From NCBI GenBank assembly GCA_038279365.1, contig JAYODI010000029.1, forward strand, positions 1 to 57,348: a stretch of DNA of 57,348 nt, in the 5' to 3' direction. This document shows, one piece after another, positions 1 to 24,001 of the stretch. The notes beneath the pieces were generated by a model. The model made no database searches. It was not told the origin of the DNA and saw only the letters and a list, made by a program, of their open reading frames with translations. The stretch is from Candidatus Latescibacterota bacterium (GTDB lineage: Bacteria; Latescibacterota; UBA2968). A program made the position numbers and the translations under genes. Numbering within the stretch: position 1 is the stretch's first letter; every line of letters starts with the position of its first letter.

Positions 1-965
<965 letters not shown>

Positions 966-3374: not shown

Positions 3375-3450
3375 GCGGCAGTAGCTCAATGGATAGAGCA
3401 TCTGACTTCGGATCAGACGGTTGGGGGTTCGAGTCCTCTCTGCCGCACCA
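3375..3450 (+). tRNA. tRNA-Arg (anticodon UCG)
   Basis: 76-nt cloverleaf: acceptor GCGGCAG/CTGCCGC, D loop with GG and A20, anticodon arm TCTGA-CTTCGGA-TCAGA, GTTCGAGTC T loop, encoded CCA. Confidence 0.97.
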
Positions 3451-17780: not shown

Positions 17781-18479
17781 CTATTTAATCCGATACCGCA
17801 CCCGTATATTGGCCACCACACTTAACTCACCGCCCGAAATGGGTGTATCGGCAGACATCATCGCTTCGGCGCGCACGGCTTTATACACCGGTGCTGGCGC
17901 CCGCCCCGTGGTGCTCACCCAAAGCAGGTCACCCAACCCAACCCCTGCCCCCTCCGCAATTGCCTGAGCCTGTTTTTTGGCATTTTTCATTGCCTTCACC
18001 AATGCCATTTGATAAGCACCCTCCGAATCGCGCACCTGGAAAGTGAGCCCCATCACCCGATTTGCCCCAGCATCAATGGCCCCATCTATCACCTGCCCAA
18101 CCTTTTTAATATCCAAAATATCGACCTCTACCGTATTGTGAACCCGATATCCGATGGGTCTGGGATCTTTTTGGCGCCCATCTTTATAATCATATTGTGG
18201 ATCTACTTGAAAATGTGTGGTCCGAATCTGAGCAGGGTCAATCCCGAGTGCTTTCAACTGCTTGCCCATCTGGCTCATTTTTCCTGCATTTTCTTGTGTG
18301 GCATCGATAGCTGTCTTCGCAAATGTCTCAACAGACAATTGTACAACGGCCTGATCGGGTTCTTTAGACACCGAAGCCAATGCACTGACTTCTATGGTTG
18401 GCACCATCTCGTCGTCATCTGCGACCACCGTTTGTACCCAAACCATCATTCCCAGTATCACCATCACCAAATATTTCAT
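17781..18479 (-). CDS. SIMPL (DUF541) domain periplasmic protein
   Basis: Signal peptide; PDQAVV, IRT..F.VDPQYDY, IGYRV.N, DGAIDAGAN. ATG 18479 follows AAGGAG. Confidence 0.9.
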   Translation of the reverse strand: MKYLVMVILGMMVWVQTVVADDDEMVPTIEVSALASVSKEPDQAVVQLSVETFAKTAIDATQENAGKMSQMGKQLKALGIDPAQIRTTHFQVDPQYDYKDGRQKDPRPIGYRVHNTVEVDILDIKKVGQVIDGAIDAGANRVMGLTFQVRDSEGAYQMALVKAMKNAKKQAQAIAEGAGVGLGDLLWVSTTGRAPAPVYKAVRAEAMMSADTPISGGELSVVANIRVRYRIK

Positions 18480-18491
18480 ATTCAACTCCTT

Positions 18492-20369
18492 TTAGACTGG
18501 TGCTTGCATGTCTTCGTTTTTTTCATTGTCTGTAAGCTGTGTTTCAAACAAATTGTAATACATACCGCGCTGAACAATCAAACGCGCGTGCGTTCCCCAT
18601 TCAACCAAATGCCCCTTATCCAAAACCAAGACCAAATCGGCCTTGCGCGCCATGGCCAACTTATGTGTAATCACAAAAGATGTGCGCGTTTCCATAATGC
18701 GATCTAAAGTGCGATAAATACGCGCTTCTGTTTTGGCATCTAAGGCCGACGTACTGTCATCCAATATAAGAACGCTTGGGTTGGTCAAAAGTGTCATCGC
18801 CAATGCCATACGCTGTTTTTGCCCCCCCGACAGTGACACACCACCTTCTCCAATACGCGTTTCATATTTGGCGGGCAACGTCATCACAAAATCATGCAAT
18901 TCTGCAGCTTTGGATGCTTCAACCACTTCATTGGGCGATGCTTGAGGGTTGCCATAACGTATGTTCTCAGCCAATGTTCCCGAAAACAACATAGGCTCTT
19001 GGGGCACCATTCGAATATGCCGCCTTAACGAAGACAATGCCAAATTCTGAATATCTTCTCCATCGACTGTAATCCGCCCCTCTGTAGGGGTGTATAATCG
19101 CAACAGCAGATTGACCAAACTCGTTTTACCTGCTCCCGATGCACCCACCACACACACCATTTGACCAGGCAACACACCAAAATTGACCCGATGCAACGCC
19201 TCGCGTTCTTTGTCGGGATCGTATTTCAAGGACACATTGTGAAATGTCACTTCACCGTGCAATTCATTAAATGTTAAGGCTCCGGGTGTATCCTCTATGG
19301 TAATATCTTCATCCAGAATTTCAAAAATTCTGTGCAATGCCGTCATCACCCACTGCACCATGATATTCATATTGGACAAAGACACCACAGGCCCAAACAA
19401 AAAACCAATAGACCCATGAAAATAGAGAAATTCACCCAAAGTCATTTGGCCATCACGAATGGCCAAAATGCCCAAATAAACCACTGCAGTTGTGCCGACC
19501 CCACTGATGAGACCACACAAAACACTCAAAGATGTATTGAGAACCGAGTTGCGCACCTGCAATCTAAAATAATCTGCAATTCCTGCAAAAAAACGGCGCA
19601 ATTCGCGCAACTCTCGGGCAAATGCCTTCATGACCCGAACACCGTTGACCCCATCGCCAATGGTGCCATAAACAGAGGCATTGGCCTCACGAATCATGCG
19701 ATTGGTTAATCGAATACGCCGAACAAAAAATTGATACACCAACACATACCCCGGCAAGGTCACCATCGCAATAAGGGCCAACTTGGCATTGATCGAAAAC
19801 AAAATAACCGTCCCAATCAACAAAGTGGCCACATCGGTCACCACACGTATAAAAACCGAAGAAATACTCGACTCCACCGCATTGACATCATCCATCACAC
19901 GGGCCATAATCTTGCCCGTTTGATACCGGTCAAAATAAGACACTTGCAATTGCTGTAACTTATGATACAAATCTTGCCGAATGCGAAACACCACTTCTTG
20001 CCCAATGCGCGCAATGCCATATGTATACCCCCATTGCACGCCCGCAAGCAAAATGCGCAAACAAATGTAGGCCATAGAAACCCAAAACAACAATCGCAAG
20101 GACCGACTTTTATCGGAAACCGAAATCGGTGCTTCGCGATTGGTCGTTGCCGTCTCACTCTTGGCTTCTTTGGGGCGTTGTTCTTTGATAAGAGAGGTGC
20201 TTACCTTTTCAACCTGCCCCACATGCAAAACATCGTCAACCATGACTTTGCTCAAATAGCTAAAAGTAAAAGATGACAACGATGCCACCAGAGCAGCAAT
20301 GAGCACCAACACCAATTTGCTACGATGAGGTTTAAAGTAACTTCTTGCCAAACGTAAAAACTGTTCCAT
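18492..20369 (-). CDS. ABC exporter half-transporter (TMD+NBD), degenerate Walker B
   Basis: GASGAGKT, LSGGQKQ, LILDDSTSALD (Asp in place of the catalytic Glu); N-terminal TM helices. Confidence 0.95.
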   Translation of the reverse strand: MEQFLRLARSYFKPHRSKLVLVLIAALVASLSSFTFSYLSKVMVDDVLHVGQVEKVSTSLIKEQRPKEAKSETATTNREAPISVSDKSRSLRLLFWVSMAYICLRILLAGVQWGYTYGIARIGQEVVFRIRQDLYHKLQQLQVSYFDRYQTGKIMARVMDDVNAVESSISSVFIRVVTDVATLLIGTVILFSINAKLALIAMVTLPGYVLVYQFFVRRIRLTNRMIREANASVYGTIGDGVNGVRVMKAFARELRELRRFFAGIADYFRLQVRNSVLNTSLSVLCGLISGVGTTAVVYLGILAIRDGQMTLGEFLYFHGSIGFLFGPVVSLSNMNIMVQWVMTALHRIFEILDEDITIEDTPGALTFNELHGEVTFHNVSLKYDPDKEREALHRVNFGVLPGQMVCVVGASGAGKTSLVNLLLRLYTPTEGRITVDGEDIQNLALSSLRRHIRMVPQEPMLFSGTLAENIRYGNPQASPNEVVEASKAAELHDFVMTLPAKYETRIGEGGVSLSGGQKQRMALAMTLLTNPSVLILDDSTSALDAKTEARIYRTLDRIMETRTSFVITHKLAMARKADLVLVLDKGHLVEWGTHARLIVQRGMYYNLFETQLTDNEKNEDMQAPV

Positions 20370-20470
20370 AACATCCTCAAGAATGTCGCAAGTCGCAGGT
20401 CGGCAAGTCGCAAGTCCGCATCAAAAGCATTGACAGACCTGTGACCTGCTGACTTGTGGCCTGTGACCGA

Positions 20471-22210
20471 TTAAACATTTTCCAACTGTGCTGCAAATTG
20501 CTCTTCATAAAGCTGTCGATAGTCCCCATTGGGGAGTTTGAGTAATTCTTCGTGTGAGCCCACTTCTTTAATTTTCCCTTTGTCCATCACCACAATCATA
20601 TCGGCATTGATAATGGTAGCCAAACGATGAGCAATAATAAATGACGTGCGCCCTGCCATCACACGTGTCAATGCTTTTTGAATCAATGCCTCAGATCGCG
20701 AGTCGAGCGAAGACGTTGCTTCATCCAAAATCATAATACCCGGCTGAGTCAAAATAGCACGGGCAATGGCCAAGCGTTGTTTTTCACCCACAGAAAGCAC
20801 AATGCCCCCTTCTCCCACCACTGTATCATAACCATCCACCTGCCCAATCACAAAATCATGCACCTCCGCATCACGCGCCGCTTCTATCACCTGCATGGCT
20901 GTTGCGTGACGATCACCATATTTCAAATTTTCAAAAATGGAGGTATGAAACAGAATGGATTCTTGCAAAACAGCACCAATGTTTTGTCGCAACGAACGCA
21001 AGGTCACATCGCGTATATCCACCCCATCTATCTCAATGGCCCCTTCCGTGACATCGTAAAACCGCATCAACAAACTCGTTAGCGTCGTTTTCCCACACCC
21101 TGTGTGTCCTACCAAAGCCACCGTGCTCCCTGCGGGTACTTCCAAATCGACACCGCGTAACACAGGCTCGCCCTTTACATATGAAAAATGTACATTTTTA
21201 AAATGCACATGGCCTTGAACCTTCCCCATTGTTTGTGCTTCAGGACGTTCGATAATCTCAGGTTGGGTATCCAAAACCTCAAAAATACGTTCTACAGAAA
21301 TGGAGGTTTGCTCCAGCAGATTCGAAACCTCAGTAAATCTGACGGCAGGTGACAATACACGAAATACAAAAGCACTAAATGCCGCCACTTCACCATAGGT
21401 CATTTGCCCGATAATGACATAATAGCATCCCAAACAATAAATAACCGTTTGCCCAAGCCCACTGAGCAAACCCGATGTGCCAGAAAAAGATGCTGAAAGT
21501 GTGGTGGTTTCCAACGCCGTATCCAAAACCCCTCGCGTACCTTCTGCAAAAGCCTCTGCTTCGCGACCTTCATTGGTAAAAGATCGAACCAAGCGTGTGC
21601 CTTTAAGACGTTCTTGTAAGGCATTGGCCACCCGATCCATTTTCTTCCAAATACTCACATTTTTGCGGCGAATCCGTTTGACAAACCACAAATAATTCAC
21701 CACATAAAGCGGCAACAAAGCCAATGTAATAATCGACAATTGCCAGCTAAAATAAAAAATCATCACCAACCCAAAAACAAACGAAATCAAATCGTTTACA
21801 ATCGAAATGGTATTCCAGGTAACCATATTTTGAATGCGCGACACATCACCCATAATGCGCGCCATAATCTTGCCCGTGCCCATTTGGTCATAAAAACGCA
21901 AAGACAATTCTTGAATGTGTTTAAACAATGACAAGCGAATATCAAAAACCAGACGTTGTCCGACCAAGTAAATGATCAAATAATTCCAATATGTACCCGC
22001 AGCAGCCAACACATTGACGGCCAAAAATGCCAAACAAATGGCTACGGATTCATCCCACTGCCCCAACCCCACCACATCGTCAATCACCAATTTCATCAAA
22101 ACAGGTGGCAACATACCCAATAAGGTCATGATACCCGTAAGGGCAATGGCCAACAGCAATTGCCCCCGAAAAGGTCTAATAAACCGCCAAACTCTCGTAA
22201 GAACACCCAT
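20471..22210 (-). CDS. ABC exporter half-transporter (TMD+NBD), heterodimer partner
   Basis: GHTGCGKT, degenerate signature LSVGEKQ, intact ILDEATSSLD and IAHRL. The pair fits TM287/288-type heterodimers. Confidence 0.95.
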   Translation of the reverse strand: MGVLTRVWRFIRPFRGQLLLAIALTGIMTLLGMLPPVLMKLVIDDVVGLGQWDESVAICLAFLAVNVLAAAGTYWNYLIIYLVGQRLVFDIRLSLFKHIQELSLRFYDQMGTGKIMARIMGDVSRIQNMVTWNTISIVNDLISFVFGLVMIFYFSWQLSIITLALLPLYVVNYLWFVKRIRRKNVSIWKKMDRVANALQERLKGTRLVRSFTNEGREAEAFAEGTRGVLDTALETTTLSASFSGTSGLLSGLGQTVIYCLGCYYVIIGQMTYGEVAAFSAFVFRVLSPAVRFTEVSNLLEQTSISVERIFEVLDTQPEIIERPEAQTMGKVQGHVHFKNVHFSYVKGEPVLRGVDLEVPAGSTVALVGHTGCGKTTLTSLLMRFYDVTEGAIEIDGVDIRDVTLRSLRQNIGAVLQESILFHTSIFENLKYGDRHATAMQVIEAARDAEVHDFVIGQVDGYDTVVGEGGIVLSVGEKQRLAIARAILTQPGIMILDEATSSLDSRSEALIQKALTRVMAGRTSFIIAHRLATIINADMIVVMDKGKIKEVGSHEELLKLPNGDYRQLYEEQFAAQLENV

Positions 22211-22281
22211 GAAAACCTCTTTGAATCAAACAAAACGATCATATTTCAATAGCAGTGGCATAAACACTCTATTTGATATAG

Positions 22282-22316
22282 AAAAACGTCCAACCTAACC
22301 GTGTAGGATGGACGCC
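22282..22316 (-). terminator. Intrinsic terminator upstream of the ABC exporter start
   Basis: Minus strand GCGUCCAUCCUA-loop-UAGGUUGGACGU followed by UUUUCUAU. Confidence 0.75.
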
Positions 22317-22521
22317 TGATGATCAAATCGAAACGTAGGGCCACCATCCCTTTTAGGAGTGTCATACACAAACCATCACGCGACACTTTTTCAGATCAAC
22401 ACCTAAACAAACAGATGGATCTTAAGCCAAAAACTGCAACCAACTCAAAAACGAGAGTTAGGCCCTAAGGCACTCCTTAAAAGGAATCAATGACAAACCA
22501 ATAAAATCTTCTTTTTTGTTG
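22282..22521 (-). ncRNA. Candidate structured leader RNA (riboswitch/attenuator-like) or standalone ncRNA
   Basis: Upstream promoter, 15-bp closing stem, 7-bp pseudoknot and terminal intrinsic terminator (see finding). No family recognised. Confidence 0.55.
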
Positions 22522-22527
22522 TACGCA

Positions 22528-22556
22528 AAACTAAAGTATTGATCTGAATGGGTCAA
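22528..22556 (-). promoter_or_regulatory. sigma70-type promoter for the leader/ABC operon
   Basis: TTGACC-N17-TAGTTT. Confidence 0.6.
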
Positions 22557-22647: not shown

Positions 22648-23421
22648 ATGTCAGAAACAGATGCACTCAAACACATTCGCCTGGTGCTTGTAGAACCCAA
22701 ACAACCGGGAAACATTGGTTCTGTAGCACGCGCAATGAAAAATATGGGCCTTTCGCGCCTTTATTTGGTTAACCCTGCCGATCATACATGTGGCGATGCC
22801 CGAGCTTTGGCACACGGATCGGGTGACATTCTCTACGGTGCCACAGTGGTAAACTCTTTGGCCGAAGCTTTGGCTGGTACGTCTTTGGTCGTTGGTACCA
22901 CACACCGCACACGGCGCGGATTTAATATCCACCATTCCCCAAGTGAAGCTGCAAAACAATTGGTCGCATTGCCAGAAAACCATGAGGGTGCCATTGTTTT
23001 TGGTCGTGAACAAAACGGCTTTACCAACGACGAACTCCACCAATGCCAAATCATCTCTCGCATACCTTCAGCAGTCACCTACCCATCGCTCAACCTTTCT
23101 CAAGCCACACTGATTTATGGTTATGAACTTTTCCAAGCCGTTTACCACACCCCAGAGCCCGCAAACCTCGATTTGGCCCCCCACGATGAAATAGAATCTA
23201 TGTATGATCACATTCAGGTGGGCTTAGACAAACTGGGCTTTGTTGCTCGCCATGATCCGCGCACCTTTATGCGCTCCATTCGGCGCATATTTGATCGCAC
23301 CCAAATGGAACGCAGAGATGTGGCCACCATACATAAAATCTTTCGGCAAGTAGACCGCTACACCGCCCGGCATGGCATAGATAGCAAATCGACCCCACCG
23401 GAAAATGAAACAGAAGAATAG
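22648..23421 (+). CDS. trmJ: SPOUT tRNA methyltransferase, TrmJ/LasT family
   Basis: LVEPKQPGNIGSVARAMKNMG, FGREQNGFTNDEL, YPSLNLSQA. Confidence 0.9.
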   Translation: MSETDALKHIRLVLVEPKQPGNIGSVARAMKNMGLSRLYLVNPADHTCGDARALAHGSGDILYGATVVNSLAEALAGTSLVVGTTHRTRRGFNIHHSPSEAAKQLVALPENHEGAIVFGREQNGFTNDELHQCQIISRIPSAVTYPSLNLSQATLIYGYELFQAVYHTPEPANLDLAPHDEIESMYDHIQVGLDKLGFVARHDPRTFMRSIRRIFDRTQMERRDVATIHKIFRQVDRYTARHGIDSKSTPPENETEE

Positions 23422-23425
23422 CCCT

Positions 23426-24001
23426 ATGCACCTGACCATCACATTGTCGTATCTCATCTTTTATGCCATCTTGCACAGTGTTCTGGCTATGGATCGCACC
23501 AAAAAAATGCTCTCTCCACTCCTGCCACAACAATATTATAGACTTCTTTATACACTTATCAGCATCATTTTACTTGCCCCACTCCCGTGGCTTCCTTGGC
23601 CAAGAGGCACCCTGTATCACATTCACGCCCCGCTATCCTACGGTTTTTATACCCTTCAGCTCTTTGGCCTCTTCGGTCTTTTATGGACACTGCGCCACAC
23701 CAATTTGAGCGATTTTTTAGGATGGGGGCATCTTCAAAAATTATCAACATCTCCGCAATTGATCACCACAGGCCCTTATCGTCTGTGCCGTCATCCCCTA
23801 TATTTTTGGATATCGGTCATCTGTATCACCCATCCACACCCAACCTATCGGCATCTCATATTCACCCTGTGGCTCGTCCTGTATTTTTGGATTGGGTCTT
23901 ATATTGAAGAGCGTCGACTCATCCTTCAATTTGGTGAGGCGTATAAAACATACCAAACCCATACTGCTCGCCTGATCCCTTTCTTAAATATTAAAATCTA
24001 A
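23426..24001 (+). CDS. Membrane methyltransferase, ICMT/nurim/MddA-like family
   Basis: HSVLA, YRLLY, LITTGPYRLCRHPLY, EERRL...FGEAY..Y. ORF track start 23405. Confidence 0.75.
   Translation: MHLTITLSYLIFYAILHSVLAMDRTKKMLSPLLPQQYYRLLYTLISIILLAPLPWLPWPRGTLYHIHAPLSYGFYTLQLFGLFGLLWTLRHTNLSDFLGWGHLQKLSTSPQLITTGPYRLCRHPLYFWISVICITHPHPTYRHLIFTLWLVLYFWIGSYIEERRLILQFGEAYKTYQTHTARLIPFLNIKI

Follow-up and report, generated by a model that had tools for sequence, protein, structure and literature searches.

A conserved, uncatalogued leader RNA with the layout of a transcription attenuator upstream of a heterodimeric ABC exporter operon in Latescibacterota

In the transcriptional OFF riboswitches, such as the purine, TPP and SAM-I leaders of Firmicutes, the P1 helix acts as an anti-antiterminator. 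The leader described here lies on the minus strand upstream of an ABC exporter operon of a Latescibacterota bacterium (assembly GCA_038279365.1, contig JAYODI010000029.1; the whole stretch of DNA analysed, 57,348 nucleotides, is called the window). It resembles these riboswitches in that P1 closes a multi-helix junction, the 3' strand of P1 also belongs to an antiterminator that competes with the terminator, the element is placed in the 5' leader of the operon it would regulate, and its stems covary. It differs from them in the length of P1 (14-22 bp against their few marginally stable pairs), in junctions and hairpin number, which vary, in its distribution (one operon, one copy per genome, a narrow clade), and in belonging to no Rfam 15 family.

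The bmrB-bmrCD leader of Bacillus subtilis is outlined in PMC4191407 as a case of ribosome-mediated transcription attenuation. As there, a terminator-based attenuator stands directly 5' of the genes for an ABC exporter that is an asymmetric heterodimer and has one degenerate ATP site; unlike there, no conserved leader frame, start codon or Shine-Dalgarno (SD) sequence is present, and a covarying structured domain of about 100 nt parts the competing strands. Factor-dependent attenuators of B. subtilis, namely the TRAP-trp leader and those of the ribosomal proteins L10 and L20 (as outlined in PMC3064811, PMC4538822 and PMC1865079), can be likened to the present leader in that a trans-acting factor on the nascent RNA picks antiterminator or terminator, and in their narrow, one-operon distribution. 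The present leader is unlike them: it shows no repeated binding motif, neither the operon nor its neighbourhood encodes a candidate RNA-binding protein, and autoregulation is unlikely because the operon products are membrane transporters.

The leader is housed in a 437-nt gap (minus strand) between a divergent SpoU gene and the gene for the first ABC subunit. The features of the window referred to below are the following:

22648-23421, plus strand: gene for a TrmJ-like SpoU methyltransferase, divergent from the leader.
22528-22556, minus strand: putative promoter (-35 box TTGACC at 22556-22551, 17-nt spacer, -10 box TAGTTT at 22533-22528).
22495-22527, minus strand: 5' part of the leader before P1, poorly conserved, with a small hairpin here in other lineages.
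22471-22494, minus strand: 5' strand of P1 (P1a GUCAUU at 22494-22489; P1b AUUCCUUUUAAGGAGUG at 22487-22471).
22460-22470, minus strand: J1/2, CCUUAGGGCCU, 5' partner of a proposed pseudoknot.
22442-22459, minus strand: P2 hairpin AACUC-UCGUUUUU-GAGUU, seen in the minimum-energy fold and in the sequence check.
22393-22422, minus strand: P3 hairpin AGAUCCAUCUG-UUUGUU-UAGGUGUUGAUCU, seen in the minimum-energy fold.
22362-22392, minus strand: J3/4 and a weak, variable P4 region, the most divergent portion of the interior, with no direct counterpart in other lineages.
22340-22361, minus strand: 3' strand of P1, CACUCCUAAAAGGGAU plus GGUGGC, doubling as the 5' half of the antiterminator.
22317-22339, minus strand: linker between P1 and terminator, holding the proposed 3' partner of the pseudoknot, 48% identical to the sister species.
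22282-22316, minus strand: intrinsic terminator GGCGUCCAUCCUA-CACGGU-UAGGUUGGACG followed by UUUUU.
22211-22281, minus strand: spacer between terminator and ATG (at 22210), with the SD site AGAGG for the ABC gene.
20471-22210, minus strand: ABC exporter subunit 1 (ABC1, 579 aa), transmembrane and nucleotide-binding domains, degenerate signature LSVGE.
18492-20369, minus strand: ABC exporter subunit 2 (ABC2, 625 aa), canonical LSGGQ, Walker B ILDD, without an AHR-type H-loop.
3375-3447, plus strand: tRNA gene.
1-965, minus strand: partial 16S rRNA gene (model positions 1-949), reaching the first base of the window.

Asymmetric heterodimeric exporters are built from two half-transporters with one degenerate ATP site, in which one subunit has a non-canonical signature and the other has the Walker B glutamate replaced and the H-loop lost. 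Both subunits encoded here carry ABC_membrane and ABC_tran domains. ABC1 has the motifs LSVGE, ILDEAT and AHR, and ABC2 has LSGGQ and ILDDST (catalytic Glu changed to Asp), no AHR being found in it. By these motif definitions the pair is an asymmetric heterodimeric ABC exporter of the BmrCD / TM287-288 type. No NCBIfam equivalog reached its cut-off for ABC1 or ABC2, and hence no substrate was assigned.

The leader is very probably a cis-acting transcription attenuator of about 250 nt for ABC1-ABC2. From a promoter-like site, RNA polymerase would transcribe the long P1 (14-22 bp) closing a domain of 96-109 nt with two or three hairpins, then a linker of 22-27 nt and the intrinsic terminator. 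The 3' strand of P1 could pair instead with the 5' arm of the terminator, giving an antiterminator. Once formed, P1 would act as an anti-antiterminator, the terminator would fold and transcription would stop before the exporter genes; if P1 were late, the antiterminator would form and the polymerase would read through.

The gap had been singled out as a candidate riboswitch or attenuator by a sequence-only reading, all of whose quoted strings and minus-strand coordinates were confirmed by a direct sequence check. Its P1 (22486-22471 with 22361-22347), both its inner hairpins and its terminator were present in the minimum-energy fold of 22275-22530 (-70.6 kcal/mol, z = -2.05, 4 of 200 shuffles equally good). 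The full P1 of the window amounts to 22 pairs (-24.8 kcal/mol). The complementary strand also outfolded its shuffles (z = -3.07); because the opposite strand folds well too, the strand call rests on the U-run, the G-U pairs and the conserved position of the promoter. A TTGAC-N17-TAnnnT sequence was seen by eye at the equivalent place in the homologous leaders. A consensus scanner flagged neither the putative promoter of the window, whose -10 box TAGTTT matches TATAAT at 3 of 6 positions, nor the terminator, which was probably missed owing to its internal mismatch.

An RNA-library contig of 153 nt (one run, depth 3.9) covered exactly 22346-22498, that is, the P1-enclosed domain, with two differences from the window, both in the P2 loop. 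No cover of flanking genes was seen within the 1.3 kb compared, and absence elsewhere is uninformative. A further contig of 194 nt, of a library type not known, also mapped on the leader. As contigs show neither levels nor transcript ends, the RNA-library contig is only a weak hint.

Close orthologues of the ABC genes were found in few genomes in a protein search of 168 genomes of the phylum: G002 (91% identity), G001 (92%, contig-truncated), G052 (76%), G050 (75%, truncated) and G051 (72%), followed by a second group at 60-62% (G054, G056 and G058). All other relatives, among them a paralogue (52%) from the genome of the window itself, were at 56% or less. A further 12 loci came from one metagenome scan, and a second contig scan, run with the ABC alignment, yielded no additional orthologue at 60% identity or above. 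At the DNA level, a search of 61 relatives matched nothing beyond the genome of the window and G002, in which a contig end interrupts the match. Homologous leaders were present in L113 and L114 (G002 species), L085 (G052), L086 and L115 (G051), L122, and L116 and L117, and L119 carries only the 3' end of the leader. The set compared below consists of seven sequences from about five lineages, the window and L113 being congeners and L115 and L122 near-identical. Measured from the -10 box, the terminator ends after 247, 249, 256, 253, 255 and 248 nt in six of them.

The sequence-only reading had made constancy of the downstream gene one of its checks, and the same ABC exporter (full-length orthologues of at least 70% identity) follows six of the leaders, with a truncated remnant after the seventh, from G032. 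A covariance model, R1, built on the P1-enclosed domain recovered the homologous leaders at 103-139 bits and matched a single copy in the genome of the window; across 151 genomes of the phylum it gave one further real match, that of G032 (43.5 bits, E = 5e-8). Two weak partial matches in the phylum search (20.6 and 19 bits) were without P1 and were treated as noise, and R1 had no matches in the f4-type leaders described below or at the loci of the 40-56% ABC relatives. In the G032 locus (L126, 1141-1648, minus strand), no more than the first ~23 ABC codons (MEILREIFPFIRSFRKRLLLAI...) remain downstream of leader and terminator; beyond them the frame enters unrelated sequence and stops. Read from its sequence, L126 is a relic locus in which the exporter was lost and the switch kept. 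The RNA is tied to one gene family, and indeed to one ABC gene, because the sole extra match in the phylum retains the start of that gene; the conserved cargo of the leader is the two ABC genes only.

Covariation was counted mainly on a MAFFT alignment of the seven leaders that was not structure-fitted. P1 comprised 17 aligned pairs, with 90.6% of cells paired and 6 pairs changed on both sides, and the terminator 12 aligned pairs, with 89.3% of cells paired and 5 pairs changed on both sides. The whole structure was 90.0% paired, against 41-54% (with 3-6 double-changed pairs) in slid controls. None of 500 shuffles reached the observed percentage paired, either of two counts of both-sides changes or the covariation score, and 51 of the 500 reached the observed value for further pair types. 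A model-fitted alignment gave 89.8% paired and 13 double-changed pairs, and RNAalifold reported double changes in 21 of 48 pairs. The interior hairpins align poorly by position and their covariation counts are soft; in the model-fitted alignment the hairpin at the P2 position had 4 of its 6 pairs changed on both sides, and P3 of the window differs from that of the sister species L113 by two double compensatory changes (CAUCUG/UAGGUG vs. CAUUCA/UGAGUG). The pairs of P1, for which the sequence-only reading had named covariation as decisive, change in a compensating fashion across the homologues, and the leaders (seven sequences, about five lineages) hold a conserved, covarying structured domain of the kind expected of a riboswitch.

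P1 ranges over the seven leaders from -18.6 to -25.8 kcal/mol. Its 5' strand holds an AAGGAG-type, SD-like motif with columns A20, A21, G22, G23, G25 and T26 invariant in all seven (in L085 the motif reads AAAGGGG). Compared across lineages, the leaders have nearly all their invariant columns in P1 and the terminator and differ in inner architecture. When the window is set against its sister species, J1/2 with P2 is the top segment (95% identity), above the P1 strands. L115 and L122 differ only in the stretch enclosed by the P1 strands, where two changes in P2 are uncompensated, and by one change in the flank 5' of P1; their P1, linker and terminator are 100% identical.

The terminator hairpin of the window has 13 pairs and one mismatch (-13.3 kcal/mol) followed by UUUUU, as in an intrinsic terminator, and those of the homologues reach -16.4 to -27.0 kcal/mol, with U-runs present. 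When the 3' strand of P1 together with the linker was searched for duplexes with the 5' arm of the terminator, the best was GGGAUGG (22350-22344)/CCAUCCU (22311-22305) plus GCC/GGC (-16.8 kcal/mol, equalled by 0.3% of 300 shuffles). Such an antiterminator duplex beat shuffles in five of the seven leaders (fractions 0.003, 0.007, 0.010, 0.027 and 0.013) and was no better than shuffles in L085 (0.36) and L116 (0.46). The best duplex uses the 3' strand of P1 itself; therefore P1, antiterminator and terminator are mutually exclusive, and an expression platform of this kind was found throughout, with the exceptions L085 and L116. Mutually exclusive folds had been part of the original proposal and are upheld by the antiterminator pairing and by the covariation of P1 and terminator; its further claim, that the folded domain gives termination, is supported by the P1/antiterminator/terminator layout. 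P1 was stronger than the antiterminator (-10.5 to -19.1 kcal/mol) in all seven leaders.

The spacer between terminator and ATG measures 70, 45 and 73 nt in three leaders and 3, 3 and 7 nt in L115, L122 and L116, and in L126 the terminator ends directly before the ATG. Because only 3-7 nt separate terminator and ATG in L115, L122 and L116, their ABC genes would be readable only through the terminator. A separate ABC promoter after the terminator, an outcome that the sequence-only reading had listed as fatal to itself, has no room there, and a promoter scan between the terminator and the ATG of the window called none. The ABC genes of L115, L116 and L126 are without an SD site, despite strong SD use genome-wide (G000), because the terminator U-run abuts the ATG.

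A 7-bp pseudoknot, UAGGGCC/GGCCCUA, had also been proposed. It is present in the window, but it is at chance level and not conserved: shuffles were at least as good in fractions of 0.078, 0.44, 0.074, 0.42, 0.40, 0.51 and 0.92 for the seven leaders, and its 3' partner is altered without compensation in L113, where the linker is 48% identical.

Rfam 15 was searched with its 4227 models, membership being a score at or above the gathering threshold of the family. In a scan of the whole window no family reached that threshold in the leader region, in agreement with the novelty proposed from the sequence. With E up to 10, only FasX (17.8 bits, threshold 100, E = 1.5) and an 11-bit lncRNA fragment appeared; the homologous leaders L085 and L086 had no matches in Rfam 15, and the T-box model (RF00230) gave no match even at E up to 10. 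The strand AAGGGAUGGUGGCC, which we take to resemble a T-box sequence, pairs within P1. In the literature on Latescibacter* and riboswitches, no title or abstract opening pointed to such a leader. On comparative sequence grounds the leader is a real, conserved, uncatalogued structured element and very probably a cis-attenuator: the switchable cis-leader of the first proposal stands, and its pseudoknot, no better than shuffles, does not.

What would trigger the switch is a separate matter. We infer that the decision is taken on the P1-enclosed domain, and a riboswitch-type OFF switch, with a small molecule or ion as candidate effector, is the single most likely trigger, favoured tentatively and at less than an even chance. 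The effector would bind the junction and pre-organise it, and P1 would close before the 5' arm of the terminator was transcribed, so that exporter expression would follow effector scarcity. In this leading reading the interior would be a ligand domain, as suggested by J1/2 and P2, the most conserved parts within the genus, and by the pairing of P2 and P3, apparently kept by compensation. Against it, lineages show little conservation of the junction nucleotides and differ in how many inner hairpins they have; to our knowledge, known aptamers do not behave in this way. The L115/L122 pattern is the opposite of the usual one, in which the aptamer is conserved and the expression platform freer, and the leader serves one operon in a narrow taxon. 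P1 outweighs the antiterminator in all seven leaders and thus would form ligand-free, unless kinetics or a factor prevents it. An OFF switch is also unexpected for an exporter.

A serious rival, possible though doubtful, keeps the same attenuator and has a macromolecule bind the single-stranded 5' strand of P1, UUYAAGGAGU; P1 would be blocked, the antiterminator would form and the exporter would be ON. Candidates are the 30S subunit on a perfect SD sequence, a GGA-binding protein such as CsrA, or an sRNA. The interior of about 100 nt would then mainly be a spacer conserved in length and serving as a timer, a view of similarly doubtful standing; its sequence and architecture do vary and its length is held at 96-109 nt, but J1/2 and P2 are too conserved for a mere spacer in the window/L113 pair. 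The relative stabilities fit well, as active blocking of P1 is the simplest route to the ON state when P1 exceeds the antiterminator in seven of seven leaders, and an ON response suits an exporter. The AAGGAG columns are invariant in all seven leaders while the outer P1 pairs drift with compensation, yet AAGGAG may be kept simply for pairing with the conserved CUCCUU, itself needed in the antiterminator. In folds truncated before the 3' strand of P1, the 5' strand was free or weakly self-paired in 7 of 7, and these truncated-transcript folds gave no alternative conserved partner for it inside the leader. The genome has a canonical 16S tail (CACCUCCUU) and uses SD sequences heavily: 1093 SD-like words fall in the -12 to -10 bin against a background of ~45 (2892 long ORFs), in a sharp peak made of GGAG, GAGG and AGGA words (whole genome G000). 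A CsrA gene is encoded in the genome, but no RNA-binding regulator was found in or beside the ABC operon. Most leaders, inspected by eye, are without a start codon at a usable distance after AAGGAG, and we know of no precedent for an attenuator worked by 30S subunits without a reading frame.

AAGGAG was also considered as the SD of a downstream mini-frame and rejected. In the window nothing was seen by eye within 12 nt, and the mini-frames starting at most 12 nt after AAGGAG were a 3-codon GTG frame (L115), a TTG at a spacing of 1-2 (L116) and a TTG with an immediate stop (L126).

A leader-peptide attenuator of the bmrB-bmrCD type is improbable. Here a ribosome stalled on a frame across the 5' strand of P1, for example by a translation inhibitor, would lead to read-through. 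The exporter is asymmetric and BmrCD-like, and for B. subtilis BmrCD, a heterodimeric multidrug ABC exporter, transcription attenuation ahead of the genes is established, as outlined in PMC4191407. A frame of at least 8 codons crosses the 5' strand of P1 in all seven leaders and in three of three f4-type leaders, but crossing frames also occur in 63-95% of shuffled leaders, so that ten out of ten is uninformative. No conserved start, ribosome-binding site, frame or peptide was found in the ten leaders: the start codons, mostly TTG, are scattered between -18 and -55, lineages differ in the frame relative to the motif (0 or 2), and no SD-like word lies 5' of any recurring frame, in an SD-heavy genome. 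The ATG that L116 shares with L115 and L122 is followed, in the latter two, by a stop after 2 codons (by eye), and all four L115/L122 nucleotide differences inside the frame alter the amino acid. The mechanism, moreover, needs no structured insert of 96-109 nt between the competing strands.

A stand-alone sRNA, offered as the alternative in the sequence-only reading, is now highly improbable. It would be made from a promoter of its own and ended by an efficient terminator, and the exporter would be transcribed independently or by unregulated leak-through. Such an sRNA would suit the discrete promoter-to-terminator unit of conserved length, the RNA-library contig that spans only the structured core and the 70 nt by which the window separates terminator and ATG, but a terminator 3, 3 and 7 nt from the ATG in L115, L122 and L116 leaves no promoter room, none was called in the window either, the RNA always lies 5' of one gene family (its only other occurrence retaining the first ~23 codons), and the conserved antiterminator pairing would be functionless.

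If the riboswitch-type OFF switch is taken further, the leader could represent a new orphan riboswitch class of uncultivated Latescibacterota, a three- or four-way junction closed by a long SD/anti-SD-like P1 and sensing a metabolite or ion linked to the exporter substrate. An equally novel alternative would be a frame-free attenuator using a decoy SD to sense free 30S subunits, with the f4-type leaders as a second branch of the same device. This proposal, in either form, is speculative and rather unlikely. Latescibacterota are without a cultured model, and a validated switch would be a handle on the timing of a BmrCD-like exporter in marine bacteria; the ligand, if found, would hint at the substrate of the exporter. 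The long P1 with its invariant SD-like strand is a test case for the regulation of very stable anti-antiterminator helices. The general impact is moderate, because the family has few members and is restricted to a single operon.

The f4-type leaders (L087 3236-3489, L088 175-426 and L089 3534-3784) lie upstream of the 60-62% ABC orthologues. They are GC-rich and have the same layout, with 251-254 nt from -10 box to terminator, and their sequence is unrelated: P1 is GUCGCC..GGGGAG/CUCCCC..GGCGAC, accompanied by an invariant GAAA-tetraloop hairpin and a terminator. All three scored 21-27 bits against the Rfam family BcKCsr2, below its threshold of 40. As homologues they were rejected, since three sequences with an almost invariant P1 give no usable covariation and the likeness is a resemblance only. 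In L089 (G058) leader and terminator stand 308 nt 5' of the ATG, and a second terminator-like hairpin, GCCGCCACUCCC...GCGGCUUUUUG, abuts the gene. ABC relatives of ~54% identity in L090, L092 and L096 have a shorter conserved leader with a hairpin and U-run, AGCUACAUAG...CUAUAGCUCUUUUUU (by eye). Terminator-based control may recur across this exporter family.

The TrmJ-like SpoU gene and a PEMT/ICMT-like methyltransferase gene are divergent from the leader both in the window (22648-24001, plus strand) and in G051 (L008 1215-2613), and SpoU-like coding sequence was also seen by eye 5' of the leader in L113, L116 and L085. TrmJ is an RNA-binding enzyme; the linkage of methyltransferase and leader is probably plain synteny. 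The gene 3' of ABC2 is SIMPL/YggE-like in the window (17781-18485, minus strand) and encodes a translational GTPase in G051 (L008 6821-7732). The 101-nt spacer between ABC1 and ABC2 (window 20370-20470, minus strand) contains GGTCACAGG twice and CTTGCGAC twice, plus one CCTGCGAC variant; these repeated words could form stem-loops, which is unusual between the halves of a heterodimer operon.
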